This document shows positions 9,924-42,371 of a stretch of 64,000 nucleotides of DNA, one piece after another. Made by a program: the position numbers and the translations under genes. The stretch covers positions 12,551 through 76,550 of the forward strand of contig JAZJZE010000006.1 of NCBI GenBank assembly GCA_040390065.1, read 5' to 3'. The notes under the pieces are model-generated. The model saw only the letters and a list, made by a program, of their open reading frames with translations, did no database searches and was not told where the DNA came from. The DNA comes from a bacterium. GTDB lineage: Archaea > Thermoplasmatota > E2 > JACPAO01 > JAHFTW01. Position 1 is the stretch's first letter; each line of letters begins with the position of its first letter.

Positions 9924-11555
9924 ATGCGTGGAGTCCTGCGTTTCAGCAAGGTGGTCATGCTCCTCGGTGTGCTCGTTCTGGCGGGGGCCCAGGTTTCTCC
10001 GGGCGCCAAGGCGACATCAGGCACGCCCCCGGCCGGTCCCGGCCTGACCGGAGCCTGGGTCGGAAACTACCTGGGCCCGCCCAACCAGGACACGGGCCAC
10101 TACGCCTTCGCCGTCATCGGCAGCGGGACGGACGCCTACGTCTATCCGCACAGTGTGCTCGGCCTCATGGAAGACATCCACACGGAGCCGACGGGCCTCG
10201 CCTCTGCGGTCACCTACGGTGCAGCCGTTTCCCTGTTCGAATTCATCGGGCCCGCCACGGACGGCAAGTACCAAGCAGTCCCCGACGCGCACTGCGGCCA
10301 CCTGTCACACTGCATCTACCTCGTCGGAGGCGAGGACACGTCCGGGACGCGGGCAACTATCACGCGGCTCGACCTGGCAGCCGGCACGGCGACGACGGCC
10401 GCGACGATGCCCGTGGCGCGCAGCCATGCCGCCGCCGTGTGGATGAGTCCCTTCGTCTACATCTTCGGCGGCCAGGATGGTTCGGGGACGCCCCTGTCAT
10501 CTATCCTGCGCTTCGACCCCGCGTCCGGGACCGTGGCGACGGATCCGGCAGTCCTCCCGACGGCCACGACGGACCTGATGGCCATCGATTTCGGCGGCCG
10601 CATCCTCGTCATGGGCGGCCAAGACGCGAGCGGCACCCCAACCGACCACGTGTACTCCTTCGACCCGGGAGCCGATGCCTTGACGCCACGGCCTGCCCTC
10701 GCGTATGCGGTCGCATCCGCCGGCATCGCGAGCGACCGGGTCAACATCTTCGTCCTTGGTGGCGTCGCGGAAGACCGCATCCAGAAGTACGACCCGGTGA
10801 CGGGGACCGCGACCGCCATGGCCGTGACGATGGCGCACGAGCGGCAAGGCATGGCAGCGTGGTCGACCATCAACGGCCCCCACATGCTGAGCCCGACGTA
10901 TCCCATCACGCCAATCCTCGACTACGTCTACATCGGCATGGCAGGCGGACGCGACACGGCAACCGGCAACGACCTCGTCGGAATGTCCACCTATGCACCG
11001 CGCCCACCTGTGGCTCCGGTCACGGCGACGGTGCTGCCGGGTGGCCTCGTCACCGTGCAATGGACGGCGCCACCGGCGAACACGTACTCGCAACTCGTGG
11101 TGTACAACGTCTGGCGCGGCGACAGCCCCTGGGAATCCGATGCGATGGCGACGTGGCAGGTCGCGCCCACGATGACCACGTTCACGGATCACCCGCCCGC
11201 GGGCGGACCCTACCGGTACTGGGTGAGCGCACGCGACATTTCGGGGAATTCCAACCCGCAATCCGCCGTGGCCTCGACACCCGTCTGTCCGCCGCCGCAG
11301 CAAGGCACCCCTCCCGCTTGCGTCGGTGACGACCAGGATGGCGACGGCGTGTCCGATGCGGCGGACGACTGCCCGGCCGACGCAGACGCATCGCAATCGG
11401 ACAGCGATGGCGACGGTCTTGGCGACGCCTGCGACCCCGATGACGACGGCGACGGCGTCGACGACAGCCAGGAGCCGTTCATCTGCGCCAACGAGAATCC
11501 CTTCACCCCACTCGACGGCCATTGCGTGGGCAATGACTACTTCCCACCGCCATGA
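9924..11555 (+). CDS. Secreted Kelch-repeat + FN3 protein with C-terminal TSP type-3 cassette and CANENP tail
   Basis: Signal peptide MRGVLRFSKVVMLLGVLVLAGAQVSPGAKA. Kelch-like blades (IYLVGGED, VYIFGGQD, ILVMGGQD, IFVLGG). FN3-like segment. Asp-rich DxDxDGxxDxxDxCP repeats. Terminal EPFICANENPFTPLDGHCVGNDYFPPP. Confidence 0.85.
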   Translation: MRGVLRFSKVVMLLGVLVLAGAQVSPGAKATSGTPPAGPGLTGAWVGNYLGPPNQDTGHYAFAVIGSGTDAYVYPHSVLGLMEDIHTEPTGLASAVTYGAAVSLFEFIGPATDGKYQAVPDAHCGHLSHCIYLVGGEDTSGTRATITRLDLAAGTATTAATMPVARSHAAAVWMSPFVYIFGGQDGSGTPLSSILRFDPASGTVATDPAVLPTATTDLMAIDFGGRILVMGGQDASGTPTDHVYSFDPGADALTPRPALAYAVASAGIASDRVNIFVLGGVAEDRIQKYDPVTGTATAMAVTMAHERQGMAAWSTINGPHMLSPTYPITPILDYVYIGMAGGRDTATGNDLVGMSTYAPRPPVAPVTATVLPGGLVTVQWTAPPANTYSQLVVYNVWRGDSPWESDAMATWQVAPTMTTFTDHPPAGGPYRYWVSARDISGNSNPQSAVASTPVCPPPQQGTPPACVGDDQDGDGVSDAADDCPADADASQSDSDGDGLGDACDPDDDGDGVDDSQEPFICANENPFTPLDGHCVGNDYFPPP

Positions 11556-11660
11556 GGTGTCGGAGCGTTGCACGCGCAACCGGGCCCAACGTAGCCAGAA
11601 CCACTTAATGTCGCAACGCGATGGAAAGGGTTGGCTGAGGAGTCGGCCGGAGTGGTTGTC

Positions 11661-13304
11661 ATGCGTGCCCGCACTGCTAGCGCGATTCTCGTGATTGTAT
11701 TCGCCTTCATGCCCCTGGCGGCGCCCCACGCCCAAGCGGCGCCATGGGTGCAACTGAGCGAAGGCTGCCAGGCCGGAATCGACGGCGGTTCCGTGAGCGC
11801 GACACCGTTCAACGTCGTCTGGACCGACATGGCGGTCTGCGTCGATCCCGACCAACCCAGCGTCTGCGTGGACGGCGCCGCGACCGGAACGATTTCCTCC
11901 GGCATCCTGCTCAACGAGGCGACCGCCTACTCCGGATCGTGCACCGAAGGCTGCAGCCACATGCAGACCCAATCCGTCCTCAAGGTGCTCCTCGGATCCC
12001 TGGTGCAGGCGTTCGTCTCCGACCACACCGAGTGGAGCCAATGCCCAACGCCGGATGGAGGCACGTCGTGCCCGCCGCCATATGTGATCGTCACGCCGGT
12101 GGGGACTTTCGACAATCCGTACACGTGTGCCGTGTCCGGCTGCGGCGGCGGACCGCCAAGCATCGAGCTGTGGGGAACGCCCCTGGTGTGCTGGCCGCCC
12201 GGGTTCGATTACTGCCCTGATGGCCTCGGCGCCGTGACGCCGGCCGGTCCCCTGTGCATGGAACTCGACTTCTGTCCGCCTCCTGACCAGGGCGTCGTCA
12301 TTGATTCCGTCATGCTCTGCCTGCCGCCCTGCCCGCCCGGCGACATCGGTCCGGGGTCACCGGCCTGCGTTCCGCCGCCGGTTCCGTGCACGTTGCCGGA
12401 GCTCGGATTGGAGCCTGATTGCATCGTCCCGTGCACGCCGCCGGACTTGGGCTACAAGCCGGCTTGCGTGCCGGGGCCCGTGCCATGCACCTTCCCTGAA
12501 TTGGGTCTCGAACCAGATTGCATCATCCCATGCACGGCCCCGGACGTCGGCTACGAGCCGAATTGCCTCGCGCCGCCCGTTCCGTGTACGCCGCCCGCGA
12601 TTGGCCTGGAGCCGGATTGCCCGGTTCCGTGCACGCCGCCGGACGTGGGCTTCGAGCCCGACTGTGCGGGGCCGCCCACGCCGTGCACGCTCCCCGAGGT
12701 CGGCATCGAGCCGGACTGCCTGGTGCCTTGTGCGGCGCCGGACGTCGGCTACGAACCGAACTGTGTCACGCCGCCGGTTCCGTGCACGCCGCCTGCCATC
12801 GGCCTCGAACCTGACTGCCTGGTTCCGTGTACGCCGCCGGACGTCGGCTTCGAGCCTGATTGCGGCCTGACCCCCGTACCGTGCACATTCCCGGAGATTG
12901 GCATTGAGCCGGATTGCATGGTGCCTTGTGCGGCGCCGGACGTCGGCTACGAGCCGAATTGTGTGACGCCGCCGGTTCCGTGCACGCCGCCTGCCGTCGG
13001 CCTCGAACCTGACTGCCTGGTTCCGTGCACGCCGCCGGACGTTGGCTTCCAGCCGGACTGCCAGCCAGCGGACGACGATGCGGACGATGACGGCGTCTCC
13101 GATGCTGTGGACAATTGTCCGGGCGTCCCGAACGGTGACCAAGCCGACCAAGACGGCGACGGCGTCGGCGATGCCTGCGACCCTGACGATGACGGCGACG
13201 GCATCCCGGACGACTTGGAGCCTACGCTATGCGCCAACGAGAACCCCCTGACCCCGCTCGACGGCACCTGCGTCGGCGACGACTATACGCCGCCGCACCC
13301 ATAG
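11661..13304 (+). CDS. Secreted Cys-rich repeat protein with C-terminal TSP type-3 cassette and CANENP tail
   Basis: Signal peptide [26 protein letters not shown]. Cys-rich N-domain, then seven 33-aa repeats, then the TSP3 cassette. Terminal [28 protein letters not shown]. The ORF track starts at a TTG (11631); the ATG at 11661 follows a GGAGTGG SD-like element. Confidence 0.85.
12369..13061 (+). repeat. In-frame tandem array of 7 x 99 nt (33-aa unit with 4 Cys)
   Basis: Units such as [33 protein letters not shown]. Each unit is two half-repeats of the form VPC-T-x-P-x-x-G-x-E-P-D-C. The nucleotide copies are clearly related but diverged. Confidence 0.9.
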
Positions 13305-13500
13305 TCGTTGGACGACACGATCGATATCTCGGGCACCCAGCTGGAAGGCCTCATGCGGCCCGCCCGTGCGGACGCTTCTCTGCGCGCGCATCCGCGCCGG
13401 CACTCCGATCCACGCGCAATCGGGCCCGAACTAGCCAGCACCACTTAATCCCCCAACGCAATGCGAAGAGTCGGCCGAGAGTTCGGCCTGGGTGGTTGGA

Positions 13501-15270
13501 ATGACTCGAAGGATGTCCACTGTCGCTACGCTGTTGCTGTTTGCATTCATGTCCATGGTCGTGCCTGCGGCGCATGCTTCGCCGCCACCGCCGTACGTGC
13601 AGTTGAGCCAAGACTGCCAAGTCGGTGTGCCAGGTGCCAGCGGAACCCTTGGCCCGGCGTCGTATGGCATCACCGACCAGCAGGTCTGCATCGACCCGGA
13701 CCACCCGCACGTCTGCATCGACGGCGCGACGGCCGTGAAGGTGGTCACCTCCGTGGCCACCGCGAACGCAAAGACCGCCGGATCGTGCACGGAGGACTGC
13801 ACCAACAACGTGGTCAACGCGGGAGGCAGCGTCAATGCGCTGCCCGTCATCGTCGGCTCCATTTCGGATGGTGGCGGCTTCCACCAGTGTCCGACACCGG
13901 ATGGGGGCGTCCGCTGCTTCCCCACCTTCCACTTCGACACAATCGTAGGTCCCGTCGACGACTCCATCTTCACGTGCTCGACGGTCGCGGCCTGCGCGGT
14001 CGGGACGGTCGAGGTCGCCCGCATCGAGGGCATCCCGATCTGCATCCAGCCCGGGACGTTGGACCCATGCCCTGGCGGCGACCTCGGCGTCGTCGTGCTC
14101 GGCAACCCGGTCTGCCATGAGGTCGACTTCTGTCCGCCGCCCGACCAGGGCGTCGTCATCGATTCCATCGTGACGTGCCTGCCGCCGTGCCCGCCCGGCG
14201 ACACCGGCCCCGGCGTGCCTCTGTGTGTCCCGGGCTCGTGCAGTTCCGTGTCACTCCTCCTCTACCTGCTCAACGCGGACTGGCTGCACGACGGCTTCCA
14301 GCCGAGCAACTGCGTCCCGCCGAACCCGGGTGCGTGCTCGGTCGACCCGTTCCTCGACGCCCTGTGCGTGTGCCTTGGCTTCGGCAGCATCAATGACTTC
14401 CTCGGGTCGCCCCACACGATTCCGTGGCCGGCGGACTGCGTCGTGCAGCCTTGCACGGCCCCTGCGATGGGACTCGAGCCCGTCTGCGTGACGCCCTGTA
14501 CTTTGCCGGACGTCGGGTTCGAGCCGAACTGCGTGACGCCCCCGGTCCCCTGCACCCCACCGACCGTCGGCTTTGAGCCGGACTGCATGGTTCCGTGCAC
14601 GCCGCCGGATGTCGGCTTCGAACCCGACTGCAACACCACGCCGACGCCCTGCACACCCCCAGAACTTGGCATCGAGCCGAATTGCATCGTAACCTGCACG
14701 GCCCCGGACGTCGGCTACGAGCCGAACTGCGTCACGCCGCCGGTTCCATGCGCCCCGCCTGCCATCGGTCTCGAACCGGACTGCATCGTTCCGTGTACCG
14801 CGCCGGACGTCGGCTACGAGCCGAACTGCGTGACCCCGCCGGTCCCGTGCACTCCCCCAGCGATTGGCCTGGAACCGGATTGCATGGTGCCGTGCACGCC
14901 GCCCGACGTCGGATTCGAGCCGGATTGTGGTACGACGCCCGTCCCGTGCACTCCCCCGGCCATCGGCCTCGAGCCTGACTGCATGGTTCCGTGCACCCCG
15001 CCGGACGTCGGCTTCCAGCCGGACTGCCAACCCGTCGACGACGATGCGGATGACGATGGCGTCTCCGACCCGGTGGACAATTGCCCCGGCATCCCGAACG
15101 GCGACCAAGCCGACCAGGACGGCGACGGCGTCGGCGACGCCTGTGACCCTGACGATGACGGCGACGGCGTCCCCGACGACTTGGAGCCGACCGTCTGCGC
15201 CAACGAGAATCCACTGACGCCACTAGACGGCACGTGCGTCGGCGACGACTACACGCCGCCGCACCCGTAG
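13501..15270 (+). CDS. Secreted Cys-rich repeat protein, paralog of 11661..13304, with the same C-terminal cassette
   Basis: Signal peptide [27 protein letters not shown]-domain alignable to its neighbour ([11 protein letters not shown]... versus [11 protein letters not shown]...). About six 33-aa repeats. Terminal [28 protein letters not shown]. Confidence 0.85.
14440..15027 (+). repeat. In-frame tandem array of about 6 x 99 nt, same 33-aa Cys-rich unit
   Basis: Units [33 protein letters not shown] and similar. The first unit is shorter and more diverged. Confidence 0.9.
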
Positions 15271-15281
15271 GGCGTGATTCA

Positions 15282-17624
15282 ATGACGCCAAGGAACATCT
15301 CCGTCCGCGCCGCGGGTGCGCTCTCGCCAGGTACCTCTGGCCGACCCCGGACGCGCCGCAATCTGCTGTACTGCCTCGCGCTGGCCGCCCTCGTGGCCCT
15401 TCTGGTCCCCGGAGCGAAGGCCGGCCCGGTCCACGCCACCGCAATTTCCGCCGGCGGCGCGCACGACTGCGTCCTTACCAACGAAGCCAACGTCGACTGT
15501 CGAGGCCTCAACAACCACGGTCAGGCCGCAGACTACACTGGGGGTCACGCCGTCGAGGTGGCCGCAGGCTACGTCCACACGTGCATCCGCACCGATGATG
15601 GGGACGTGGACTGTTGGGGCGACAACGGATACGGCGAGGCCGCCGACTACACGGGCGGCGATGCCATCGGCGTCGGCGCCGGCGTGCACCACTCGTGCGT
15701 CCTGCAGTCCTCGGGAAACGTCGACTGCTACGGGGAGTCAGCCTTCGGCATCAGCGACGACTACACGGGCGGCGACGCCGTGCAACTCGACGTCCATCTT
15801 TGGCAGAACTGCATCCTCAAGACGAGCGGCGACGCGCATTGTTGGGGATCCTCGCCGAACGATTACACCCTCGGCGATGCCGTCGCGGTCGGCGCAGGCA
15901 ACGGCCTGATGTGCGTGGTCACGACCGGCGGCAGCGTCGAGTGTGATGGCGATAACACGTACGGGCAGGCCATCGACTACGCCGGCGGCGACGCCATCCA
16001 AGCTTCGCCCTCGAACGGCTTCACGTGCATCCTCAAGAGCGACGGCAACGTCGATTGCACAGGGTACAACGATTACGGCGAGGCAAACGACTACGCGGGC
16101 GGCGACGTCTTGCAGGTCGCCACCGGCCCATACCACCAGTGTCTGCTCCTGGAGTCGGGAAGCGTCGACTGCACCGGCAGCGATTACACCACCGACTGGT
16201 TCGCCGATAGCGACGGCGACGGCGTGCTCGACAACGTCGACAACTGCCCTGCCGACGCCAACGCGGGCCAGGCCGACGCCGACAGTGACGGCATCGGCGA
16301 CGCGTGCGACCTCGACAACGACAACGATGGCGTTCCCGATACCACGGACAACTGTCCAAGCGATGCCAACGCCAGCCAGGCCGACAATGATGCAGACGGT
16401 GACGGAGACGTGTGCGACAGCGACGACGACAACGATTCGGTTCCTGACGCGTCCGACAACTGCGTCTTTTTGGCCAACATCGCGCAGGATGACAATGACG
16501 CCGATGGCTCGGGTGATGCTTGCGATTTCGACGACGACAATGACACAGTCGCGGATGGCGCGGACAACTGTGCGTTCATGGCCAACACCGACCAGGCCGA
16601 CAACGATGCAGACGGTGCCGGGGATGCTTGCGACAGCGACGATGACGACGACACGATCGCCGACACGGCAGACAATTGTCCCTTCGCAGCCAACACCGCG
16701 CAGGCCAACAACGACGGCGACGCCATGGGCGACGCATGCGATCCGGACGATGACAACGACGGTGTTGCCGACGGCACGGACAATTGCCTCTTCACGGCCA
16801 ATGCGGGCCAGGCCGACAACGACGCCGACGGTTCGGGAGATGCCTGCGACGCTGATGACGATAACGACGGCGTTGCGGATGGCACCGACAATTGCCCATT
16901 CATCGCCAATGCCGGCCAGGCGAACAACGATGGCGACGCGACGGGCGACGCATGCGACCCGGACGATGACAACGACGGCGAGGCGGACGCAGCGGACAAC
17001 TGTGTCTTCACGGCGAACCCCGGCCAGGCGGACGTCGACGGCGATGGCATCGGGGATGCCTGCGACGACTCCGACGGCGACAGTGTGATGGACGACACGG
17101 ACAATTGCCGCACGACGCCAAACGCCGGGCAAGGCGACAACGATGCGGACGGCCAAGGCGATGTCTGCGACACGGACGACGACAACGATAGCGTGCCGGA
17201 CTCCGTCGACAACTGCGACCTGGACGCCAACCCCGGCCAGACGGACCTCGATGCCGACGGCCAAGGCGACGCATGCGATGCCGACGACGATAACGACGGC
17301 ATCGCGGACGGAGCCGACAACTGCCCGACCATCGCCAACGCGAGCCAAAGTGACGCCGACGGCGACGGGCAAGGGGATGCCTGCGACCCCGTCAACGACG
17401 ATGCAGATGGTGACGGCGTCCCCAACACCACCGACAACTGTCCCGTCGATCCCAACGGCGGTCAAGGCGACCAGGACGCAGACGGCAGCGGCGACGTGTG
17501 CGATCCCGACGATGACGGTGACGGCGTCGCGGACAGCCAGGAACCCTTCCTCTGCGCCAATGAGAACCCCTTGACCCCCTTGGACGGCCATTGCGTCGGG
17601 AGCGACTACTACCCGCCGCCGTGA
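15282..17624 (+). CDS. Secreted RCC1-like seven-blade propeller fused to 12 TSP type-3 repeats and the CANENP tail
   Basis: N-terminus RPRTRRNLLYCLALAALVALLV (possible Tat-like RR signal). Seven repeats of the type HTCxxxxxGxVDCWGxNxYG. Twelve D-rich units each containing DNC. Terminal [30 protein letters not shown] lies 11 nt after the previous stop, with GTGAT SD-like element. Confidence 0.85.
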   Translation: MTPRNISVRAAGALSPGTSGRPRTRRNLLYCLALAALVALLVPGAKAGPVHATAISAGGAHDCVLTNEANVDCRGLNNHGQAADYTGGHAVEVAAGYVHTCIRTDDGDVDCWGDNGYGEAADYTGGDAIGVGAGVHHSCVLQSSGNVDCYGESAFGISDDYTGGDAVQLDVHLWQNCILKTSGDAHCWGSSPNDYTLGDAVAVGAGNGLMCVVTTGGSVECDGDNTYGQAIDYAGGDAIQASPSNGFTCILKSDGNVDCTGYNDYGEANDYAGGDVLQVATGPYHQCLLLESGSVDCTGSDYTTDWFADSDGDGVLDNVDNCPADANAGQADADSDGIGDACDLDNDNDGVPDTTDNCPSDANASQADNDADGDGDVCDSDDDNDSVPDASDNCVFLANIAQDDNDADGSGDACDFDDDNDTVADGADNCAFMANTDQADNDADGAGDACDSDDDDDTIADTADNCPFAANTAQANNDGDAMGDACDPDDDNDGVADGTDNCLFTANAGQADNDADGSGDACDADDDNDGVADGTDNCPFIANAGQANNDGDATGDACDPDDDNDGEADAADNCVFTANPGQADVDGDGIGDACDDSDGDSVMDDTDNCRTTPNAGQGDNDADGQGDVCDTDDDNDSVPDSVDNCDLDANPGQTDLDADGQGDACDADDDNDGIADGADNCPTIANASQSDADGDGQGDACDPVNDDADGDGVPNTTDNCPVDPNGGQGDQDADGSGDVCDPDDDGDGVADSQEPFLCANENPLTPLDGHCVGSDYYPPP
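16206..17535 (+). repeat. Array of 12 thrombospondin type-3-like repeats (about 36 aa each)
   Basis: Recurrent DxDxDGxxDxxDNCxxxANxxQxDxDxDGxGDxCD. Twelve DNC occurrences counted in the translation. Confidence 0.85.
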
Positions 17625-17660: not shown

Positions 17661-18500
17661 ATGGTGAACCGCATGAACAAACCAACACTCGTCCTCGTGA
17701 CTGCCTGCATGCTCGTGACTGCCTTCCCGGCGTCCGCAACCTTCCCCGACAGCGACCCCATCCCGGACGCAGCCGAACAACTCGTCTGCGGCTTCCCGGC
17801 GGTCAAGAACGCCATCAACATGCTTCCCCCGAACGTCCTGCACTGCGACCCCGACGGCGACCTGACGGGCGACCTCCTGGTCCCCGCGACGCCGCCCGCC
17901 CCGTGCGGCTCCTGTGCGGCGACCGACATCGTCGCGGATCAGGTCTTGCCGCTGGTCCCCGGCATCCCCACGCCCCCGGTCGTGCTGCCGCCCAACGACA
18001 TCCCGCCCAACGGCGTGCTGCTCGGCTACCTCAGCACGGAATACCGCCCGCTTCCCATCGACCGCTGGTGCGTCATCTGGGCCCCCGTCATGGGCCCCCC
18101 CGTGCCCGTCTGCGTCGACGCCGGCCCGGCCAGTCCGCTCCTGCCGCAGCAGCCCCCGACGCCCATCGGCAGCACGCCGGGCATCCCCGCGGGCTCCATC
18201 TTCAACCAGGACCCCGATGACGTGCCGTCCGTCGACATCCGCGTGCACGTCCAGTACTTCCACGACGACACCATGTTGAACCAGCGCGTGGGCGTCGGCC
18301 CGACGGGACCCTTCGAGCCCGTCGACCTGGACAACACGGGGGCCATCAACTGGTGGGCGACGAACGCCGCCGGCACGGGACTCGTTGTGAGCCTCACGCC
18401 CATCGTCGGCGGCAACCCGCAGACCCCCATCGTGGTCTCCGCGCCGATGGTCGGCCAGGCCGTCGCGGCCGCAGCCGCCACCGTGGCGTCGCTGCCGTAA
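17661..18500 (+). CDS. Secreted Pro-rich hypothetical protein
   Basis: Signal peptide MNKPTLVLVTACMLVTAFPASA. Pro-rich, several Cys. Good G/C third-position bias. No family recognised. Confidence 0.55.
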   Translation: MVNRMNKPTLVLVTACMLVTAFPASATFPDSDPIPDAAEQLVCGFPAVKNAINMLPPNVLHCDPDGDLTGDLLVPATPPAPCGSCAATDIVADQVLPLVPGIPTPPVVLPPNDIPPNGVLLGYLSTEYRPLPIDRWCVIWAPVMGPPVPVCVDAGPASPLLPQQPPTPIGSTPGIPAGSIFNQDPDDVPSVDIRVHVQYFHDDTMLNQRVGVGPTGPFEPVDLDNTGAINWWATNAAGTGLVVSLTPIVGGNPQTPIVVSAPMVGQAVAAAAATVASLP

Positions 18501-18582: not shown

Positions 18583-19644
18583 GTGAACCTCTACTGGCCG
18601 CACCACGTCATCCCGCGCAGTGCGCGCCGCCGCAACGCGAAGCGCCGCGGCGCGTGGGATGGCGCCGAAGCGGCCGCGTCGTCCGTCCTGCTGGTGAGCC
18701 ATGCCAACTGCTTGGACGGCGTCGGCGCGGCCCTCGTCGTCCTGCGCACTCTCGGCCCCGCAGGGGTCGGTGTGTGCTACGTGCAGCCCGGAGAGATGGC
18801 CGAAGTGTTGAGCCATTTCGCCAGCGTTCCCGGGGGCGGGCGCCGCCTGCTGGTTGCCGACCTCTCGTTGCAGCCGGACCAGTACGACGGCATCGTCGCC
18901 GCGTGCCGGCGCCTGCGCGAGGGCGGTTGGAGGATCGAGTGGCGCGACCACCATCACAAGCAGTGGGAGGGCCTCGACCTGTCGCGGCTTCGGGCGCAGC
19001 TCGTGGTGCTGGACGTCAACGCCGATGCGACGGAGTCCGGAGCGAGCCTGCAGCAGAAGGCGACGGCGCCGAAGGACGCATTCCTTGCGCGCCTGGCCGA
19101 AACCGTGCGCGACCGCGACCTGTGGTGGAACAAGACGCCTGACTCCGAGACGCTCGAGTTCGCCCTCAGCGATTTGGGGACGAAACGTTTCGTGGCCGCT
19201 TACCTCGCCGCGCCCGCGCCATCGGCCGTTGTCTTGCCCGCCGTCGCCGAGGCGGCCCAGCGCGAACGCGACGGACAGGCACGTGTGCTCGCGCGCCTGC
19301 TCGGCCAGGCGCGGTACTTCGGCGAGGGCACCACGCGCGTCGGCGTCATCTACGGCTGGCTGCCGAAGAACACGGGCCTGCACGAACTTCTGCACGACCA
19401 TGCTTGCCACGTCGCCGTCAACGTGCGCCCGAACGGCAAAGTCAGTCTGCGCAGCCGCAAGGGTGCCGACGTGTGCCATCTCATCGCCCGCGACTTTTCC
19501 GGGGGCGGCCACCCGAACGCCTCAGGCGCCGACCTTGGCTTGTCGGGCCGGTCCTACTGGTGGTATGTTCTCCGCCGCGGCCGCGTCGCCGTCGTCGAGA
19601 GACTCGCGGCGCGAGCCGTCGCAGCCCTGCGGGACGGTGCGTGA
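18583..19644 (+). CDS. DHH/DHHA1-family phosphoesterase
   Basis: SHANCLDGVGAA (DxD-type motif), WRDHHH (DHH motif), GGGHPNASGA (DHHA1 GGGH motif). GTG start about 25 nt downstream of CCAAATACC, so possibly leaderless. Confidence 0.75.
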   Translation: MNLYWPHHVIPRSARRRNAKRRGAWDGAEAAASSVLLVSHANCLDGVGAALVVLRTLGPAGVGVCYVQPGEMAEVLSHFASVPGGGRRLLVADLSLQPDQYDGIVAACRRLREGGWRIEWRDHHHKQWEGLDLSRLRAQLVVLDVNADATESGASLQQKATAPKDAFLARLAETVRDRDLWWNKTPDSETLEFALSDLGTKRFVAAYLAAPAPSAVVLPAVAEAAQRERDGQARVLARLLGQARYFGEGTTRVGVIYGWLPKNTGLHELLHDHACHVAVNVRPNGKVSLRSRKGADVCHLIARDFSGGGHPNASGADLGLSGRSYWWYVLRRGRVAVVERLAARAVAALRDGA

Positions 19645-20627
19645 TGGCCAAGCCGCGGCCGGCGCAAGGCGTCGTGCAAGGCGACGCGGTCGTCGTGAAG
19701 GACGAGGCGCAGGCCAACCGCCTGCACAACCGCGGTTATCTCGGCGCCCCGCAGCCCGGCAACACGTTGCGCCTGACGCTCACGGAAGCTTCCTGGGCCG
19801 TGGCCGAGGGGCGACTCGTCGTGCAGCAAGACGGGAAGGGGTTGGGCTTGCCGACGTTGCTGGATTTCGCAGCCAATCGGGACCTCACGGCGGCGGCCCA
19901 ATACGCCGTCTATCGTGACCTGCGCGAGCGTGGCCTCGTCGTGCGCCATGTTGCCGCCGGCCTTGCCGCATGGCCTCGTGGCAAAGGGATCGACGGCGAG
20001 CCGGATTTCGTCGTGCGGCCGCATTCCGAGGACGATGGCATCCCCGCCACAGACCTGTGGGTGTCGAACGGCATGGTGCACGCCATCGTAGACGCCGACG
20101 GCGCAGTCACGTACTTTCGCGCTACGACGGCATCCCCGGAGGGAACGACGGTCGAGCCGCGTTTTCCCAAAACGGCCGGCCAGCGCATCGGTGGCCAGGT
20201 GCTCGTCACCGACCCCACTGCCTGCCAGGCCATGACGGCGGCGTTCGTGGGGGCCGCGGGGCTGGGCGGTGTCGTTCTCTCCCGCGCGGAGGCAGCATGG
20301 CTGGAGGGCCGAGGCATCCTGGACGTCGCCGGCGGCGCAGACGACGGCGCGGCGCCAACTGTCGCGGCGACCCTGGCGTCCCTCCGAGCCCGCGGCATCG
20401 TCGTGCGGTCCGGCTTCCGTTTCGGCACGCACCTGCGCGGCTACCGAGGAGACCCGGATGCCGGGCACGCTGAGTGGATCGTGACCTGCTGCAATGCAGA
20501 CGACGAGCTCCCATGGAGGCTACTCGCGCGGGCCATCCGTGTAGCGCATGGCGTGCGCAAGACGTTCCTTGTCGCCCTGGCCGCGGCAGACGTGCAGTAT
20601 GTCGCGCTCGCCTGGTTCAAACCGTAA
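19644..20627 (+). CDS. endA: tRNA-splicing endonuclease, duplicated-domain (homodimeric) type
   Basis: 327 aa with two endonuclease-like halves. C-terminal catalytic block GFRFGTHLRGYRGDPDAGHAEWIV...VRKTFLVA (Y/H/K pattern). ATG overlaps the DHH stop (TGATG). Confidence 0.8.
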   Translation: MAKPRPAQGVVQGDAVVVKDEAQANRLHNRGYLGAPQPGNTLRLTLTEASWAVAEGRLVVQQDGKGLGLPTLLDFAANRDLTAAAQYAVYRDLRERGLVVRHVAAGLAAWPRGKGIDGEPDFVVRPHSEDDGIPATDLWVSNGMVHAIVDADGAVTYFRATTASPEGTTVEPRFPKTAGQRIGGQVLVTDPTACQAMTAAFVGAAGLGGVVLSRAEAAWLEGRGILDVAGGADDGAAPTVAATLASLRARGIVVRSGFRFGTHLRGYRGDPDAGHAEWIVTCCNADDELPWRLLARAIRVAHGVRKTFLVALAAADVQYVALAWFKP

Positions 20628-20724
20628 CGCGGCATCCCCTTGAGGCTGGGGTGGAGGTGGCCAAACTCGCACACGCCTTGGCCGGTCCTTTCACCCCTAA
20701 GGCCGGCCGGTGCCTGCGCCCATC

Positions 20725-21930
20725 ATGCGCGTGTCCATTGCCGTCCTCGCCGCCGTCCTGCTCATCGCCCCGCCCATCCCCGTCGGCGGCCAGGCGCAGC
20801 CGTCGGGCGTGCGGATTTCCGAGATCATGTCCGATCCGGATACAACGGCGGGCCAGCGCGAGTTCATCGAGGTGTGGAACACCGGCCAATCGGCGGTCGC
20901 CCTGGCGGGCTGGAAGTTGCACGATGCCGCGACCGCATCGGGATCGGTGAACACCTTCACCTTTCCGCCATGGAGCCTGCCCCCCAACGGCCGGGTCGTC
21001 GTCTGGGGTGGCGGCGTCGGAGACGGCCGCGGGCCCGCGTGGAGCAACTCCGCGGTCTGGAACAATGCAGGCGATGGCGTGAGCCTCGTCGACAGTGGAG
21101 GTGCCACCATCGACTGGGTGGGCTACGGGTCGGCCGTACCGCCGCCAGGGTTTGGCAATCAATCCGTCCCCGCCGCGCCGCCCCGGGGGCAATCGTTGCA
21201 GCTCGATGGCAGTGCCTGGGCACCCGGCGCGCCCACGCCTGGCAGCGCCCCCGGCGCCGTCGGCGGATCGCTCACGATTGAGGTCGCCAATGTTGCACCG
21301 TCCGTGGCCTTCGCCGCCACGCCGGTAAGCGCTCGTCCCGGTTCTAGCATCGCCGTGTCGTTCGTCGTGGATGACCCGAACGGCCCCTCGGATGTCGTCA
21401 CGTGGCGCCTCTCGTCAGGGCAGGGGATCCTCGCAACTGGGACTGCGACAGGAACCCGGACCTTGCACCTCGCGGCGCCCCCGTCACCCGGGGCCTGGGT
21501 GCTCAACCTGACGGCGACCGATGCGGCCGGGGCCAGTGCCGCAGCCGCGGCCATCATCCAAGTGCGGAACACGGACCTCGTCGTGACGATCCCGGCGGGT
21601 GCGCTCCAGTTCGGTCAGGCCGCCCCCGGCGAGTCCGAGGTCACGGGCGTGGGCGCCGTCGACGTCACGAACGACGGCGACGCGGACGTGACGCCGCTTT
21701 TGGACGTCTCCGGATTCGCGGGGTCCGGCGGGCTGGCGTTTCCCGCCGAGGGCCATGTACGCGTGACCTGGGATGCAGGCAACCAGACCATCGCTTACGT
21801 TCACCCCCTGACGGCGCTTTCGCCCCTCGCGCCGCACGGTCACGCGACGCTGCGCTTCCATCTCGTCGATGTCCCCGCGGGATTGGCCGCAGGAACCTAT
21901 GGCGCTTCGTTCACGTTGGTCGCGCAATGA
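20725..21930 (+). CDS. Secreted lamin-tail-domain (LTD) protein with Ig/PKD-like domains
   Basis: Signal peptide MRVSIAVLAAVLLIAPPIPVGG. LTD pattern ISEIMSDPD...REFIEVWNTGQSAVALAGWKL...FTFPPWSLPPNGRVVVW. Downstream beta-sandwich-like segments follow. Confidence 0.75.
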   Translation: MRVSIAVLAAVLLIAPPIPVGGQAQPSGVRISEIMSDPDTTAGQREFIEVWNTGQSAVALAGWKLHDAATASGSVNTFTFPPWSLPPNGRVVVWGGGVGDGRGPAWSNSAVWNNAGDGVSLVDSGGATIDWVGYGSAVPPPGFGNQSVPAAPPRGQSLQLDGSAWAPGAPTPGSAPGAVGGSLTIEVANVAPSVAFAATPVSARPGSSIAVSFVVDDPNGPSDVVTWRLSSGQGILATGTATGTRTLHLAAPPSPGAWVLNLTATDAAGASAAAAAIIQVRNTDLVVTIPAGALQFGQAAPGESEVTGVGAVDVTNDGDADVTPLLDVSGFAGSGGLAFPAEGHVRVTWDAGNQTIAYVHPLTALSPLAPHGHATLRFHLVDVPAGLAAGTYGASFTLVAQ

Positions 21931-23697: not shown

Positions 23698-25386
23698 GTG
23701 CAATCGGCGTTGCGCGTCCTCCTCCTGGCAATGCTCCTCGTCGCTCCAGCCCTGTCCGGCTGCTTCGGCTTCGGCCCCCAATGCAGCTACCATGTGGCCA
23801 TCACGCCCATCAGCGACAACGCCCTCACCACCGACAACCGCTTCCGCGTCGAAGTCACCGAGGACGAGCCGGTGCACATCGAAGCCACCGCGTCGGACGG
23901 CCGTTTCGTGCAACAGGACGGTCAGCAGAAGGCTACGCTCGTCATGCCCGACGGCACGTGGGACGTCTCCTACAGTGTCCACGGCAACCGCTGCAATTCG
24001 TACTCGGGCGTCCGCGTGGATACCACACCGCCGACGATCACGGGGCTGCAGGCGCTGGCCAACGCGGATTCGGGGCGGCATTACCGTCTCGGCGTCGGCG
24101 TCACGATTTCTGGCGCAGCCTCGACGCGCGTCATGGACCTGCGTGACAATTCCCTCATCGCCACGAGCCTCCCCGTGGACCTCAACAACCTCGCCGACGG
24201 GGTCTCGGCGTACCTGGTCTCCGCGCGGGACGAAGCGGGGAACTACGCCAACGCGACCGTGCAGGTCCGCGTCGGCTCCGCCGTCGACCTGCCGGCGGGC
24301 AAGTACACGTTCGGCGTGGTGGCGCGGTACTCCAACGACCTCATCCTGTGGGACATCACCGACCCGGCGTCGTACATGACGGTGGCGCAAGCTTCGGCGG
24401 CCACCGGCGGGCATGATCTCGGAGCCGGATATGGCGTCACACCGGCCGACGCAGAGGTCCAGCGCGTCGTCGCGGCCACAGTGACGCCCGGCATGACGAG
24501 CGCCGAGCGCGCGCTCGCCTTGCTGAAGTACATGATGCGCAACCTGCACTACGACACGTCGCGCCTGGACAATGACCACCTGTTGACACCGCACCAAGTC
24601 CTCCTCGACATGGAAGACTCGGCTGGCCGGGACTGCACCGACGCCTCGGGCAAGGCGCCGGATTGCGACGGCCTCGTCATGGACGGCAGTGGCAACGGTG
24701 TCAAGGGAGGCATCTGCCGAGACCTCGCCGCCACCTACGTCAGCCTTCTGCGCGCGGCCGGTGTCCCCGCTCGCTTGGTCTCCGGCTACGTCGCCGGCAA
24801 CGTCAACGGCTTCCACGCCTGGGCCGAGTTCTACGGGGGCGCACCAGCCGCGCACCCGGGCCAAGCACCGTGGGTCCCGGTGGACGTGAGCAACGTCGAC
24901 GGCACCTATTCCGATTCCGTGCTGCTGCAGTCGTTTGGCATCCAGTTGCCCGAGTACCTGACGTTGCGCGCGGTGCCGGAGACGTCCGAAGTGCAGGGCT
25001 GGAGCACGGCGCTCGGCGTACACTACCAGTACCCCCAAGGCACGCCGGAGCCCAAGATCACGTTCCAGAAATCCGTGGCCGCCGACTTCACGCGCCCGGG
25101 TGTCCTGTGCTTCGACCCGCAGACGCGCAGCCGCGCCCCCGCCGACAGCGAGTCGGCGTGCACCTCCTTCGGGTTCTACTTGCCGCATTTCACTCTGTCC
25201 ACGACGCGCAGCATCGACTACGGCATTCTCGTCGAATCCGCCGCCAAGGGGACGCAAGTGAGAGCCGAGGTCGCCTATCCGTTCCCGGAATCGGTGGCGC
25301 CGAACCACGTCGACTTCCTGTTCTACGGCCCCCTCGACGGCCAAGACAAGGTGGCCGGCAAGGCCGACGCTAACTTCACTGTCTGA
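23698..25386 (+). CDS. Transglutaminase-like secreted lipoprotein
   Basis: Lipobox LSGC in MQSALRVLLLAMLLVAPALSGC. Transglutaminase-core Cys-His-Asp pattern (GGICRDLA, FHAWAEFY, WVPVDVS). GTG start about 25 nt after AAAAGGTTT. Confidence 0.75.
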   Translation: MQSALRVLLLAMLLVAPALSGCFGFGPQCSYHVAITPISDNALTTDNRFRVEVTEDEPVHIEATASDGRFVQQDGQQKATLVMPDGTWDVSYSVHGNRCNSYSGVRVDTTPPTITGLQALANADSGRHYRLGVGVTISGAASTRVMDLRDNSLIATSLPVDLNNLADGVSAYLVSARDEAGNYANATVQVRVGSAVDLPAGKYTFGVVARYSNDLILWDITDPASYMTVAQASAATGGHDLGAGYGVTPADAEVQRVVAATVTPGMTSAERALALLKYMMRNLHYDTSRLDNDHLLTPHQVLLDMEDSAGRDCTDASGKAPDCDGLVMDGSGNGVKGGICRDLAATYVSLLRAAGVPARLVSGYVAGNVNGFHAWAEFYGGAPAAHPGQAPWVPVDVSNVDGTYSDSVLLQSFGIQLPEYLTLRAVPETSEVQGWSTALGVHYQYPQGTPEPKITFQKSVAADFTRPGVLCFDPQTRSRAPADSESACTSFGFYLPHFTLSTTRSIDYGILVESAAKGTQVRAEVAYPFPESVAPNHVDFLFYGPLDGQDKVAGKADANFTV

Positions 25387-26360: not shown

Positions 26361-26480
26361 GGGCAGCCGCCGAGGCCCGCAAACGACTCTCCGCAACGGA
26401 GGGGGCGCATCAGAAAGCTTATAGTGGCTCAGGGTCCCTGCAACTTGCTCCGGAACGGCGCATGCCGGGCCGGGGCCACC

Positions 26481-28943
26481 GTGGTGCACAACGTGGTCGC
26501 TGTCCAATCCCTTCGCAAATTGCCCATCGTCGCCGTCGCCTTGGTGATGTTGGCATCCGCGCTCATCCTGCCGCCATCGCACATCGTTTCGCCCGCGGAC
26601 GCGACCGCCACCCCGACGTCGACGAAGTTCGGCATGTCGGGCGCGCGCATCTGGAACAACTACAACCTTGCGACCGTCACGGCGGTCGGAGAGGCGGGTC
26701 CGAGCGGCGCCTGCGGCTGCGAGCCCACGATGGGCGTCGACTGGGTGCACGGCAACGGCAAGGACGCCATTTACCAGGCGATGACCGAGACCTTCTGCCT
26801 CTCCTGGGACGACAACCAGCCGATTGGCGTCCCGCCGCAGCTCACGATGACGCGCTGCACGTCGCAATTCAACAACTACGGCGCCACGTACGGCGGCGGC
26901 GCCGTCCAGCCCAACTACGACCCGATCCTCTATACGGACTTCGACGGCGGCCGCACCTTCGCCGGCGGCCTCGTCATCAACCCGCCCCCGCCGGCCAACC
27001 CGGTGACGCCGATTGTCTGCGGCGTCCTGCCTTACCCCGCCGGCTGCACCTACGGCTGCAGCGAACTCTCCTTCACCGACACCAACGACGGCTCCGACGG
27101 TTGGATGCCCGTCACCGACGCCTGCGCCCTGCCTTCGTGGGATCATGAGACGATCAGCGGTGGACCCTGGGCCTTCCCGCCCCCGAGCTGGGCGGCCCCC
27201 GGCTCGCGTGCCGTCTATTACTGCGCGCAAGTCGGCGAGATCGCCTGCTGGACCTCGTACGACGGCGGCGTCACCTTCTCACCGACGAACCTCGCAAACG
27301 ACCCGAGCAACGACGACTGCACCGGCATCCACGGCCACATGCGCATCGGCCGCATGTACAAGGGCGACGACGTCGGCGAATCCGGCAGCGACCCGCAGGA
27401 CGGCCTCGGCTACGCCTACTTGCCCGACAAGGCTTGCAGCATCGGGTCTGCCGCGGCCGCCGCGGCTTCCACGCCGCCCACGCCGCCTGCCTGCAAGGTC
27501 AACCCCGGCAACCTGCCGTGCAAGACCGGCTTCGTCTACAGCAAGGACAACGCCCTTTCCTTCATCGAGCGCGAGCGCCCGGACACGAGCTCGACCGACT
27601 GCAGCACGAACCCGCCCCCGGCCGGCCCCATCCTGCGCCCCGGCCACATGGACCCCTCCATCGCGCCGTCCCTTGACAACGGCTGGATCTACCTCGGCGC
27701 CGGCGAGCAGGGCGCGACGGCCGGGCAGCCCGGCGGCGCCTACATCGCCATGAGCAAGACGAACGGCGCAACGTGGGAAGACGTCGGCGTCGGCAACGGA
27801 GCCTGCCCCGGTACGAAATACTTCAACGTCGGCGCCCTCGCTGGCGTCCAGCAGGCCACGATGGCGGACGTCATGGTCGGCGACGACGACCGCGCAGCCT
27901 TCGCTTTCCTTGGCAGCACGGCATCCACCGCGGACTACGACAGTTGCGGCGGCGGCGCGTCGGCGCACATCTTCAACCTCTACGTCGCCTTGACCTACGA
28001 TGCGGGCAAGACGTGGACCGTGGACAAGGTCACGACCGACCCCGTGCAGCGCGGCGGCATCTGGCCCTACGGCGGCGGCGCAACGTGCCGCAACCTCCTC
28101 GACTTCAACGACATCGTGACGGACTACCAAGGACGCATCATGATGGCCTACAGCGACGGTTGCGTCGGCACTTGCGCCGGGCCGACCGGAACCTCCGGCA
28201 TGTCGACGAGCGCGGACGCCGCGGTTGCTCGTCAGACGACGGGTCGTGGTCTGTTGAAGGCGTATGACATTCCGGATCCTCCGCCAACGCCGTTGCCGGA
28301 TGATTCTTCGTCGCCCAGTTCCGCGGGCCCCGTGCAGTATCAACCGTATGGGCCGGAAGTGACGGATACGAATGACCAGGATGGCGATGGCGTCATCGAT
28401 GCCAACGACGACTGCAAGACCGTCCCCAACGCAGACCAGAAGGACACTGACATGGATTCCTTCGGCGATGCGTGTGATGCGGATGATGATGGCGATGGTA
28501 TCCTCGATGGTGCCGACAATTGCCAATTCGTCCCTAACGCGCAGCAACTCGATGCCAACCACAACAAACTCGGTGACGTCTGCGATGCGGATGCGGACGG
28601 CGACGGCAAATTGAATGCCGCCGACGATTGTTGGCTCATGCCGAATGCGGATCAAGTCGACTTGGATCGCGACGGCATCGGCGATGTTTGCGACAAGGAC
28701 CGCGACGGCGACGGTGTCCCCGACTCCAGCGACGCCTACCCTGATGACCAGTCGCGTTGGAACGGCGACCTCGTGGATGCCGCGGGCGCTCCGCAGACCA
28801 TCGGCGAAGACCACCGCCCCATGAATGGCGTCGAAGCCAAGACGGCCGGCAGCACCAGCAGCATGCCCGTCCTCATGATCGCCGGAGCCCTCGTCATCGC
28901 AAGCATGCTCGCCCTCATGCTCCTCATGCTGCGGCGAAAGTAA
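26481..28943 (+). CDS. BNR/Asp-box propeller protein with three or four TSP type-3 repeats and C-terminal TM anchor
   Basis: Asp-boxes (TDFDGGRTF, TSYDGGVTF, SKTNGATWE, TYDAGKTWT). TSP3 repeats (DQDGDGVIDANDDC...). C-terminal helix MPVLMIAGALVIASMLALMLLMLRRK. The ORF opens at a GTG (26424) that lies inside a TATA-like AAGCTTATAG. I therefore prefer GTG 26481, which gives MVHNVVAVQSLRKLPIVAVALVMLASAL; the start remains uncertain. Confidence 0.8.
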   Translation: MVHNVVAVQSLRKLPIVAVALVMLASALILPPSHIVSPADATATPTSTKFGMSGARIWNNYNLATVTAVGEAGPSGACGCEPTMGVDWVHGNGKDAIYQAMTETFCLSWDDNQPIGVPPQLTMTRCTSQFNNYGATYGGGAVQPNYDPILYTDFDGGRTFAGGLVINPPPPANPVTPIVCGVLPYPAGCTYGCSELSFTDTNDGSDGWMPVTDACALPSWDHETISGGPWAFPPPSWAAPGSRAVYYCAQVGEIACWTSYDGGVTFSPTNLANDPSNDDCTGIHGHMRIGRMYKGDDVGESGSDPQDGLGYAYLPDKACSIGSAAAAAASTPPTPPACKVNPGNLPCKTGFVYSKDNALSFIERERPDTSSTDCSTNPPPAGPILRPGHMDPSIAPSLDNGWIYLGAGEQGATAGQPGGAYIAMSKTNGATWEDVGVGNGACPGTKYFNVGALAGVQQATMADVMVGDDDRAAFAFLGSTASTADYDSCGGGASAHIFNLYVALTYDAGKTWTVDKVTTDPVQRGGIWPYGGGATCRNLLDFNDIVTDYQGRIMMAYSDGCVGTCAGPTGTSGMSTSADAAVARQTTGRGLLKAYDIPDPPPTPLPDDSSSPSSAGPVQYQPYGPEVTDTNDQDGDGVIDANDDCKTVPNADQKDTDMDSFGDACDADDDGDGILDGADNCQFVPNAQQLDANHNKLGDVCDADADGDGKLNAADDCWLMPNADQVDLDRDGIGDVCDKDRDGDGVPDSSDAYPDDQSRWNGDLVDAAGAPQTIGEDHRPMNGVEAKTAGSTSSMPVLMIAGALVIASMLALMLLMLRRK

Positions 28944-29074: not shown

Positions 29075-29146
29075 CCCCCATCATGGTTCAACCTGCCATT
29101 GTCCCTAGGGAGACCATCCCAAGGGCCAATTGATCGAGGTCCCACG

Positions 29147-36511: not shown

Positions 36512-36521
36512 GCCGGTCCAG

Positions 36522-36543
36522 CCTTTTCTCCCCTTTTCCCCCC
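36522..36543 (+). terminator. Oligo-T/pyrimidine-rich archaeal terminator candidate
   Basis: ccTTTTctccccTTTTcccccc lies 11 nt after the stop. A similar motif follows giant gene 2. Confidence 0.5.
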
Positions 36544-36672
36544 GTGCCGTCACCGCCAACCTACGGCGTCCGCGGATTTGCCTGAAATACCGTGCAGGAC
36601 CGGTTTGGCCCACGCGCATCTTGCGAGGCCGCGGACTGGGAGCACATTTTGCCGATTTTGGCGTACCGTTTT

Positions 36673-36725
36673 GGTCAATCGGCGCACTCCAGATGGATGA
36701 CGAACTGGAAGGCATCTGCGCAATG
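36673..36725 (+). promoter_or_regulatory. Conserved upstream element, copy B
   Basis: ggtcaatcggcgcactccagatggatgacgaactggaaggcatctgcgcaatg. Near-identical to the copy at 50483-50538 and clearly related to 42205-42260. Contains the dyad CAGATG-N17-CATCTG. Ends about 40 nt upstream of the TATA box. Confidence 0.6.
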
Positions 36726-36765
36726 GAGCCCGCGGTTCGGTCGGGTCCGAATCTGTTGCTTGTTG

Positions 36766-36774
36766 TTTTAAATA
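36766..36774 (+). promoter_or_regulatory. Archaeal TATA box (TTTTAAATA) of giant gene 2
   Basis: Consensus-like TATA box. ATG 36851 lies about 55 nt downstream of the inferred start and is preceded by GAGG at a 7-nt spacing. Confidence 0.6.
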
Positions 36775-36850
36775 CGTCCAGGGATGGGACGGACCAGCAA
36801 CGCTGATTGCGTGCCGCGAGGGCCGCGTCGGTGTGCCTTGAGGCAACAAC

Positions 36851-42046: not shown

Positions 42047-42057
42047 GCCACAACCCC

Positions 42058-42088
42058 CATTTTCCCTCCTTTTCCCTCGTCCTTTCCT
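42058..42088 (+). terminator. Oligo-T/pyrimidine-rich archaeal terminator candidate
   Basis: caTTTTccctccTTTTccctcgtccTTTcc begins 12 nt after the stop. Resembles the motif after giant gene 1. Confidence 0.5.
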
Positions 42089-42204
42089 GTCCGTCCGGGC
42101 GCCGACGCCTTGCCCGCCATCCCTGGGAGAGTGGGTCAGCTCCGGGGGGCTATGGCGGCCGGGCCGGCGCCAGACCGGGGCCAACCAGGGGGTCGCCCAG
42201 GAGG

Positions 42205-42260
42205 GGCAATCTGCGGGGAATCCAGCTGGATTGCGAACGGGAAGGCATCTGCGAAATGCC
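42205..42260 (+). promoter_or_regulatory. Conserved upstream element, copy C (more diverged)
   Basis: ggcaatctgcggggaatccagctggattgcgaacgggaaggcatctgcgaaatgcc. Homology to copy B continues downstream (cggttcggt..ccgaatctgtt) as far as the TATA box. Confidence 0.55.
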
Positions 42261-42292
42261 CGTTCGGTTGACTCCGAATCTGTTCCTTGGCG

Positions 42293-42301
42293 TTTTTAAT
42301 A
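42293..42301 (+). promoter_or_regulatory. Archaeal TATA box (TTTTTAATA) of giant gene 3
   Basis: TATA-like box followed by the same CCCCCC run as in gene 1. The inferred start lies about 50 nt upstream of ATG 42372. Confidence 0.55.
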
Positions 42302-42371
42302 CCCCCCAGATTGGAGAACCATGGGACCGGTGCGCCTTTTGGTGACGCCGGCCTCAAGACGAGGTCAAATC

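Follow-up and report, generated by a model that had tools for sequence, protein, structure and literature searches.

A very small C-terminal module shared by secreted archaeal proteins with unrelated heads, and a candidate partner encoded beside it

Introduction

The closest described counterpart of the arrangement considered here is the dockerin-cohesin system (PF00404/PF00963), in which a short, C-terminal, Ca2+-dependent module is carried by many secreted proteins with unrelated heads and has a constant partner encoded nearby. Pairing between chains is also known for unpaired EF-hands, as in the EF5-EF5 dimerisation of penta-EF-hand proteins (calpain subunits, sorcin, ALG-2). Little is known about surface construction in uncultured Thermoplasmatota. 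Thrombospondin (TSP) genes are widespread in Poseidoniales, where they have been implicated in adhesion (PMC6461757). Here we analyse a stretch of 64,000 nucleotides from an archaeal metagenome-assembled genome (MAG) (contig JAZJZE010000006.1 of assembly GCA_040390065.1, positions 12,551 to 76,550; hereafter, the window). Four adjacent genes of the window, A to D, encode secreted proteins that end in the same module of 36-38 amino acids (aa), designated S; the gene that follows, E, encodes a secreted protein with a related module, designated L. A first-pass annotation of the window had proposed that the shared terminus is a dockerin-like or covalent handle by which exchangeable heads are hung on a surface scaffold. 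In our analysis the data are best explained by a Ca2+-dependent pairing of the S tails with the L module of E, a reading to which we assign a probability of about one half.

Results

The shared cassette ends in a separate module

The four + strand open reading frames (ORFs) at 9924-17624 each encode a signal-peptide protein ending in a common cassette of about 75 aa, as the first-pass annotation had described with coordinates that proved right to within a few codons. A six-frame regular expression search and a module hidden Markov model (HMM) found exactly four full copies of the tail in the 64 kb window, at 11439-11549, 13185-13295, 15151-15261 and 17508-17618, with scores of 61-67 bits. All four read EPxxCANENP[LF]TPLDG[HT]CVG[NDS]DY[FTY]PP(H)P-stop and follow a thrombospondin type-3 (TSP3)-like DxDxDG...NCP...GDxCD stretch. 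The cassette is made of two parts, one to two true thrombospondin type-3 repeats and then the separate S module. The upstream half matches TSP_3 (PF02412; Pfam cut-off 25 bits) with 29 bits in A, 36 in B, 36 in C and 346 in D, and it is through this half that a PDB sequence search with the cassette retrieves COMP and TSP-1/2 only (E down to 8e-37). The best TSP_3 stretch stops about 27 residues short of the C-terminus; the terminal tail alone gives no TSP_3 match in Pfam, and the last 36-38 aa are covered by no Pfam or NCBIfam model and by no PDB sequence or fold.

Between B and C, the last 80 codons show 4, 1 and 26 differences at codon positions 1, 2 and 3, respectively, making 23 codons synonymous and 5 non-synonymous. 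The two proteins agree at 72 of their last 76 residues, whereas their heads are 53% identical. The last 27 codons of A and D differ in the same manner (2, 2 and 12 differences). Since the differences are mostly synonymous in both comparisons, the tail copies are old and under purifying selection rather than recent chimeras. The third-position bias and the protein-level constraint inferred from it at first pass are thus borne out.

A 36-column profile of the tail was searched against 1.84e9 representative proteins (E<1e-3) and yielded 57 matches. Nearly all are proteins with a signal peptide in which the module lies at the C-terminus or close to it; about two thirds of all modules stop 0-3 residues from the end. 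The consensus is D-x-D-x-D-x-[VI]-P-D-x-x-E-P-x-[LIV]-C-x-x-E-[ND]-x-N-x-x-x-D-G-x-C-x-G-x-[DN]-Y-x-P-P, in which three D, then E, C, G and C are invariant. Some proteins carry internal or duplicated copies (P0002, P0004, P0006, P0056), and a subgroup has 11-18 extra residues past the motif. Among 43 family representatives the heads are fn3 (8), Kelch (5), Ig-like, LamG, CarboxypepD_reg or none recognisable. TSP_3 is present in only two of the 43; S is therefore a mobile module in its own right, not the terminus of a TSP3 array. Two ideas of the first-pass annotation fall with this result: that the whole 75-aa cassette is the functional unit, and, as the eventuality it had named against itself, that the tail is just the standard end of a TSP3 family.

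When a degenerate DNA motif pattern was run over 185,579 species genomes, it hit 13 places, all of them true modules and all in archaeal MAGs. Twelve are labelled Thermoplasmatota, from sand, groundwater and soil, and one Halobacteriales; so far the S/L family is found almost only in Thermoplasmatota MAGs. A word-indexed protein search with a 44-aa tail alignment gave no match; that index needs longer queries. No description of the S and L modules or of the E-like family described below was found in the libraries or literature searched, nor did literature on Thermoplasmatota with thrombospondin, dockerin or C-terminal signals yield anything on the S module.

Three elements can be told apart in S. 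A 12-residue EF-hand-like loop, D-x-D-x-D-G-[VI]-P-D-x-x-E, runs into a short Cys-ended helix; a 12-residue acidic loop (xxENxNxxxDGx) follows, closed by a second Cys; and a small terminal hairpin, GxDYxPP, ends the module. The two Cys probably form a disulfide staple. In an AlphaFold2 (AF2) model of the cassette, the tail is predicted with high local confidence (pLDDT 88-93) as the Ca loop, directly followed by a helix (PDDLEPTLC), then the loop between the two Cys and, around DY, a hairpin of two strands; confidence is low in the TSP3 part. Judged as an EF-hand loop, the first element has D1, D3, D5 and E12 invariant across the 57 modules, and position 6 is occupied by Gly in all four tails of the window. 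The likeness suggests that S binds Ca2+. No entering helix precedes the loop in the AF2 model, and there is no Pfam EF-hand match. Foldseek searches of the PDB with this model and with that of an L+S protein (see below) returned nothing better than E=2.

S and L are fused in small proteins and split in larger ones

The module HMM also gave a partial match at the N-terminus of ORF E, DSDPIPDAAEQLVCGFPAVKNAINMLPPNVLHC. This is the L module, a long-loop version of the form DxDGDx[IV]PDxxExxxCGRxAVRxxINx6-8C..[DN]YxP, which sits upstream of S in most small members of the family. In minimal proteins of 111-133 aa, there is a signal peptide, L, a linker and S. The two modules are homologous (hhalign probability 97.8%, E=1e-12, 37 columns), and the AF2 model of the L+S protein P0035 has the same loop-helix...hairpin pattern in both (pLDDT 79-91, predicted template modelling score, pTM, 0.60). 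The family accordingly falls into an L+S class (29 clusters, median 227 aa, S loops Cx[VIL]E[ND]QN) and an S-only class (23 clusters, median 638 aa, loops CA[NQ]ENP, often followed by an amphipathic extension of 12-17 aa). As discussed below, the complementarity between fused and split forms is a Rosetta-stone signal that L and S work together.

Other features of the small proteins were noted along the way. A hydrophobic, Gly-rich stretch ahead of S in small L+S proteins was considered as a transmembrane (TM) helix; it is absent from the four window proteins. At locus L009 (1540-5396; Thermoplasmatota MAG JBFIJP010000051.1), four module-bearing paralogs of 184-201 aa are clustered on one strand with an unrelated 220-aa gene among them. 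They have a long-loop Cys unit (LCGR...C) without the Ca loop, then a Gly-zipper-like hydrophobic stretch, e.g., GPIVGGIVGLILSVPWALL, before S.

Genes for E-like proteins directly adjoin genes for S-tailed proteins

Gene E (17661-18500, + strand), not singled out at first pass, begins 36 nt past D and encodes a 279-aa protein with a signal peptide, the L module (about 17748-17867), a CxxC (PAPCGSC), six conserved Cys and a C-terminal VPYxGQAxAA. It belongs to a family of secreted proteins of 258-289 aa that share the N-terminal L module, an invariant CxxC, two further Cys and a C-terminal VPYxGQ. The Cys of E-like proteins make up three pairs and, in the alignment, there is no invariant His or Ser besides them. 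Neither E nor the E-like profile matches any Pfam or NCBIfam model, PDB entry or thioredoxin-like family. In the word-indexed search, ORF E alone retrieved itself only and the E-like alignment five proteins.

Each of the eight distinct E-like genes that we found directly adjoins one or more same-strand genes for S-tailed proteins without L: four such genes in the window, six in L019 and one each in L002, L003, L020, L023, L025 and L027. Gaps are about 0-36 nt where the S gene is upstream of the E-like gene, and 93 nt in L019. The six S-tailed proteins of L019 range from 289 to 1346 aa and have unrelated heads (Kelch+fn3, MAM/fn3 and others). Three of the eight loci are independent of S, as they were found by searches with E-like sequences only. 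E-like genes are absent from all ten loci that encode fused L+S proteins; when only loci reached through S are counted, such a gene is present in five of six S-only loci vs none of ten fused ones (Fisher p about 0.0014).

Tails and L modules also vary together. Three subtype groups can be recognized: ENPxTPxDG tails occur with ...LPPxVxHC L modules (window, L002); NFNFDG or FFESDG tails, with a PPTxEGIL extension, occur with ...NSLP... L modules (L003, L019, L023, L027); and PADGxC(x6)Y tails occur with GVPC L modules (L020, L025). Each locus has one tail subtype despite the differing heads.

The four S-tailed proteins of the window

Gene A (9924-11555, + strand, 543 aa) encodes a signal peptide, a Kelch propeller, an FN3-like stretch, a TSP3 repeat and the S module (11439-11552); its NCBI entry is MES2154667.1, "MAG: kelch repeat-containing protein [bacterium]". 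Of the Kelch-plus-FN3 head assigned to it at first pass, the Kelch repeats are confirmed by Pfam (E=3e-14); the FN3 part is plausible by eye and receives no Pfam call at E<=0.01. Gene B (11661-13304, + strand, 547 aa from the ATG, ORF opening at 11631) encodes a signal peptide, a Cys/Pro-rich repeat head, TSP3 and S (13185-13301); gene C (13501-15270, + strand, 589 aa, ORF opening at 13492) is its paralog, with S at 15151-15267. TSP_3 is the sole Pfam match of both. Gene D (15282-17624, + strand, 780 aa, ORF opening at 15234) encodes a signal peptide, an RCC1-like propeller, anticipated at first pass and supported by RCC1_2 (E=1.5e-33), 13 TSP_3 repeats, which had gone unmentioned there, and S (17508-17621). 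Once the cassette is removed, relatedness remains only between the heads of B and C (53% identity by BLASTP); those of A and D match no other head at E<1e-3. The notion of one tail on interchangeable heads holds accordingly.

The heads of B and C (11661-13060 and 13501-15030) are made of Cys/Pro-rich repeats of about 17-18 aa, PVPCTPPxVGxEPDCxVPCTxPDVGxEPxC, which give 48-50 Cys per protein and have no Pfam match. Protein P0005 (locus L002) has a terminal Cys/Pro-rich stretch that resembles them by eye; its head gives no BLASTP match to B or C at E<1e-3.

A Kyte-Doolittle scan (19-residue windows) found the N-terminal signal peptide to be the only hydrophobic stretch in A-D, in agreement with the first-pass view that they have no TM anchor. 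Lacking any hydrophobic tail segment or NCBIfam sorting-signal match, the termini are, as was said then, unlike PGF-CTERM-type signals. D scores 346 bits with NCBIfam NF047638 (MYXO-CTERM protein MtsC; cut-off 350; A-C, 41-43 bits). This score comes wholly from the 13 TSP3 repeats, which puts D at risk of mis-annotation by automated pipelines; none of the four proteins has a Cys-plus-TM terminus of the MYXO-CTERM kind.

Host lineage and neighbouring genes

The window has 68% G+C. A two-domain tRNA-splicing endonuclease is encoded at 19404-20627, and the cysteinyl-tRNA synthetase (CysRS) is 64-65% identical to those of two "Thermoplasmatota archaeon" MAGs, the synteny of CysRS with a CDP-alcohol-transferase gene being common to all three. 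This gene content indicates an archaeal source despite the "[bacterium]" label at NCBI. The same two MAGs are also among the S-module matches in the genome collection. In two related MAGs (L010, 727-3527; L014, 3804-6370), a fused L+S protein is encoded beside CysRS and divergently from it, where the window has gene A; the CysRS-adjacent position thus appears to be a conserved site for module-bearing genes.

Downstream of the S/E cluster lie genes for a secreted lamin-tail-domain protein (20710-21930) and a secreted transglutaminase-core protein (23698-25386). The latter was considered as a cross-linker of the tails and rejected, the tail having no conserved Gln or Lys. Three giant proteins with FN3/Ig-like domains follow at 29099-36511, 36851-42046 and 42321-48611 (2470, 1731 and 2096 aa). 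All three possess a signal peptide and one C-terminal TM helix, followed by a cytoplasmic tail that ends in a conserved zinc-ribbon-like CPxC...CPxCG, an unusual end for a surface protein. Ahead of them, 26424-28943 encodes a protein of 839 aa that combines TSP3 repeats with a TM anchor at its C-terminus (...LMLLMLRRK). At other loci, proteins with TM anchors directly adjoin the S/E genes, namely in L019 (1-1617, TSP3-like motifs), L020 (5561-7927, PKD plus TSP3) and L025 (1-1380, TM anchor, no TSP3 seen). These neighbours, at 26424-28943 in the window and in L019, L020 and L025, may include the membrane anchor of the system.

Discussion

Fused/split complementarity, EF-hand-like loops, strict adjacency and subtype matching lead us to propose that S pairs with L in a Ca2+-dependent manner, much as unpaired EF-hands or the two F-hands of a dockerin do. 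In the small secreted proteins, L and S would be paired in cis, within one chain; in split loci, the S tails of large proteins with variable, adhesin-like heads (Kelch, RCC1, FN3, Cys-rich repeats) would pair in trans with the L module of E. Because several proteins carry S alone and one constant neighbour carries L alone, E would serve as the common extracellular adaptor for interchangeable heads. We infer that S and L touch physically, and hold this pairing to be the best account at even odds.

Some observations weigh against it. The subtype matching comes from eight loci and is confounded by their shared phylogeny. P0006 (locus L022) has two S modules, yet its contig of 9.4 kb lacks an E-like gene. 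E itself is without a membrane anchor, which leaves the retention of any complex at the surface unexplained. It is the pTM alone of the predicted L+S model that suggests cis packing of the two modules. Adjacency, finally, may have reasons other than docking, such as a joint maturation or chaperone function or the common descent of genes within one cluster.

The last point bears on an explanation that we regard as unlikely but worth keeping in mind, namely that E-like proteins are dedicated maturation factors of the S tails, either thiol-disulfide helpers acting through CxxC or Ca2+-dependent chaperones; or else that the tails self-associate or bind envelope glycans via Ca2+, with E as a bystander. 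An invariant CxxC and three Cys pairs would suit a helper for tails that need one disulfide, and adjacency by itself fails to separate a chaperone from an adaptor. E matches no thioredoxin-like or other family, however, and, since its L is homologous to a module found on the same chain as S in fused proteins, it fits a stoichiometric partner better than an enzyme. We find it harder to believe, and give a rather low probability, that the tail is a structural cap, a partnerless, degenerate last unit of the TSP3 Ca2+ wire that would nucleate the folding of the acidic repeats or stabilise it. The DxDxDG loop is common to the tail and TSP3, and the first residues of the tail can be aligned, weakly, to where the T3 repeats of thrombospondin-2 end (DNDNIPDIDDVCPENNAIS), yet 41 of 43 representatives carry the module without TSP_3, and the minimal proteins are L+S only. 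The cap would also leave adjacency to E-like genes and subtype matching unexplained.

The position of most modules within 0-3 residues of the C-terminus, and the presence of PGF-CTERM-like proteins next door in relatives of the same lineage, might point to a sorting or processing signal, cleaved or covalently attached by some enzyme like the substrates of sortase, archaeosortase or myxosortase. The tail, however, is acidic, with no hydrophobic helix or basic end, matches no NCBIfam sorting signal and is predicted to fold confidently as a mini-domain; internal and duplicated copies occur, as does the subgroup with residues past the motif; no enzyme gene is conserved nearby, and the E-like proteins lack an invariant His or Ser. 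This makes such a signal, and with it the covalent attachment entertained at first pass, very improbable. Even fainter is the chance that the tails dock on the giants (29099-48611), which the first-pass annotation had favoured as the scaffold. Three TM-anchored giants and one TSP3+TM protein do lie 9-31 kb downstream on the same strand, but the giants contain no match to cohesin, L or S, and four other S/E loci (L003, L020, L023, L025) show no protein of at least about 1,500 aa within the sequence examined.

Returning to Ca2+-dependent pairing of S with L, we advance more tentatively, as a possibility that falls short of even odds, that Thermoplasmatota have an unrecognised extracellular assembly system in which an E-like adaptor captures exchangeable adhesin-like heads by Ca2+-dependent trans-pairing of homologous, disulfide-stapled F-hand mini-domains. 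Such a system would parallel cohesin-dockerin in archaea but rest on another principle, that of split vs fused module pairs. If S and E form a docking pair, S would be a new, very small (~37 aa), Ca2+-switchable protein-protein connector and an archaeal route to displaying varied binding heads; dozens of hypothetical proteins would become easier to annotate, adhesion in soil and groundwater archaea would gain a model open to testing, and protein engineers might obtain a compact orthogonal tag/partner pair. Should the pairing prove wrong, two new domain families still stand, the module and the E-like proteins, both conserved, under selection and in strict genomic association.

Comparison with known systems

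Of the thrombospondins (TSP-1/2, COMP; PDB 1ux6, 1yo8, 3fby), the window proteins share a bona fide TSP_3 in the upstream half of the cassette. The DxDxDG loop that opens their tail is also that of TSP3, and the tail bears a weak resemblance to the ...D-x-C-P-E-N junction past the last T3 repeat. What comes after this junction in thrombospondins is a lectin-like domain of about 200 aa, whereas the window proteins stop 22 residues later. A nearly identical Ca2+ loop, DxDxDGIPDxxE, is found in anthrax protective antigen (PA) and clostridial binary toxin B (PF03495). This family was the only sub-threshold Pfam match, given by two module sequences out of six (E=0.0036 and 0.74). The likeness covers 12-13 residues, and the remainder of the 78-position domain is absent. 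By sequence, the S loop is closest to these DxDxDGIPDxxE Ca2+ loops of TSP3 and of binary-toxin B/PA.

A single Ca2+-loop module that gains its partner from another chain would recall EF5-EF5 pairing. Penta-EF-hand proteins are cytosolic and pair through helix-loop-helix EF-hands without disulfides, whereas S is extracellular and has no entering helix and a Cys-bracketed loop. The likeness to dockerins goes further, in that S is short and C-terminal, has an EF-hand-like loop leading into a helix (an F-hand), is probably Ca2+-dependent, and occurs on many secreted proteins with unrelated heads whose candidate constant partner is encoded nearby. Dockerin-like docking, as suggested at first pass, is in this sense what fits best; a dockerin proper is not what the tail is, for S has one loop-helix unit (helix 46-54 in the AF2 model) vs two duplicated segments of 22 residues, a putative disulfide staple and a GxDYxPP hairpin end, and the Dockerin_1 profile matches no S, L or L+S sequence even at E<=10. 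Cohesin has no match in the giants or in the other neighbours, and the candidate partner, E, carries a homologous module instead of the cohesin beta-sandwich, with one site where cohesin scaffolds have several. By analogy, then, we propose that the system is a modular Ca2+-dependent docking tag of known logic, built from a new mini-domain and with a new candidate partner.

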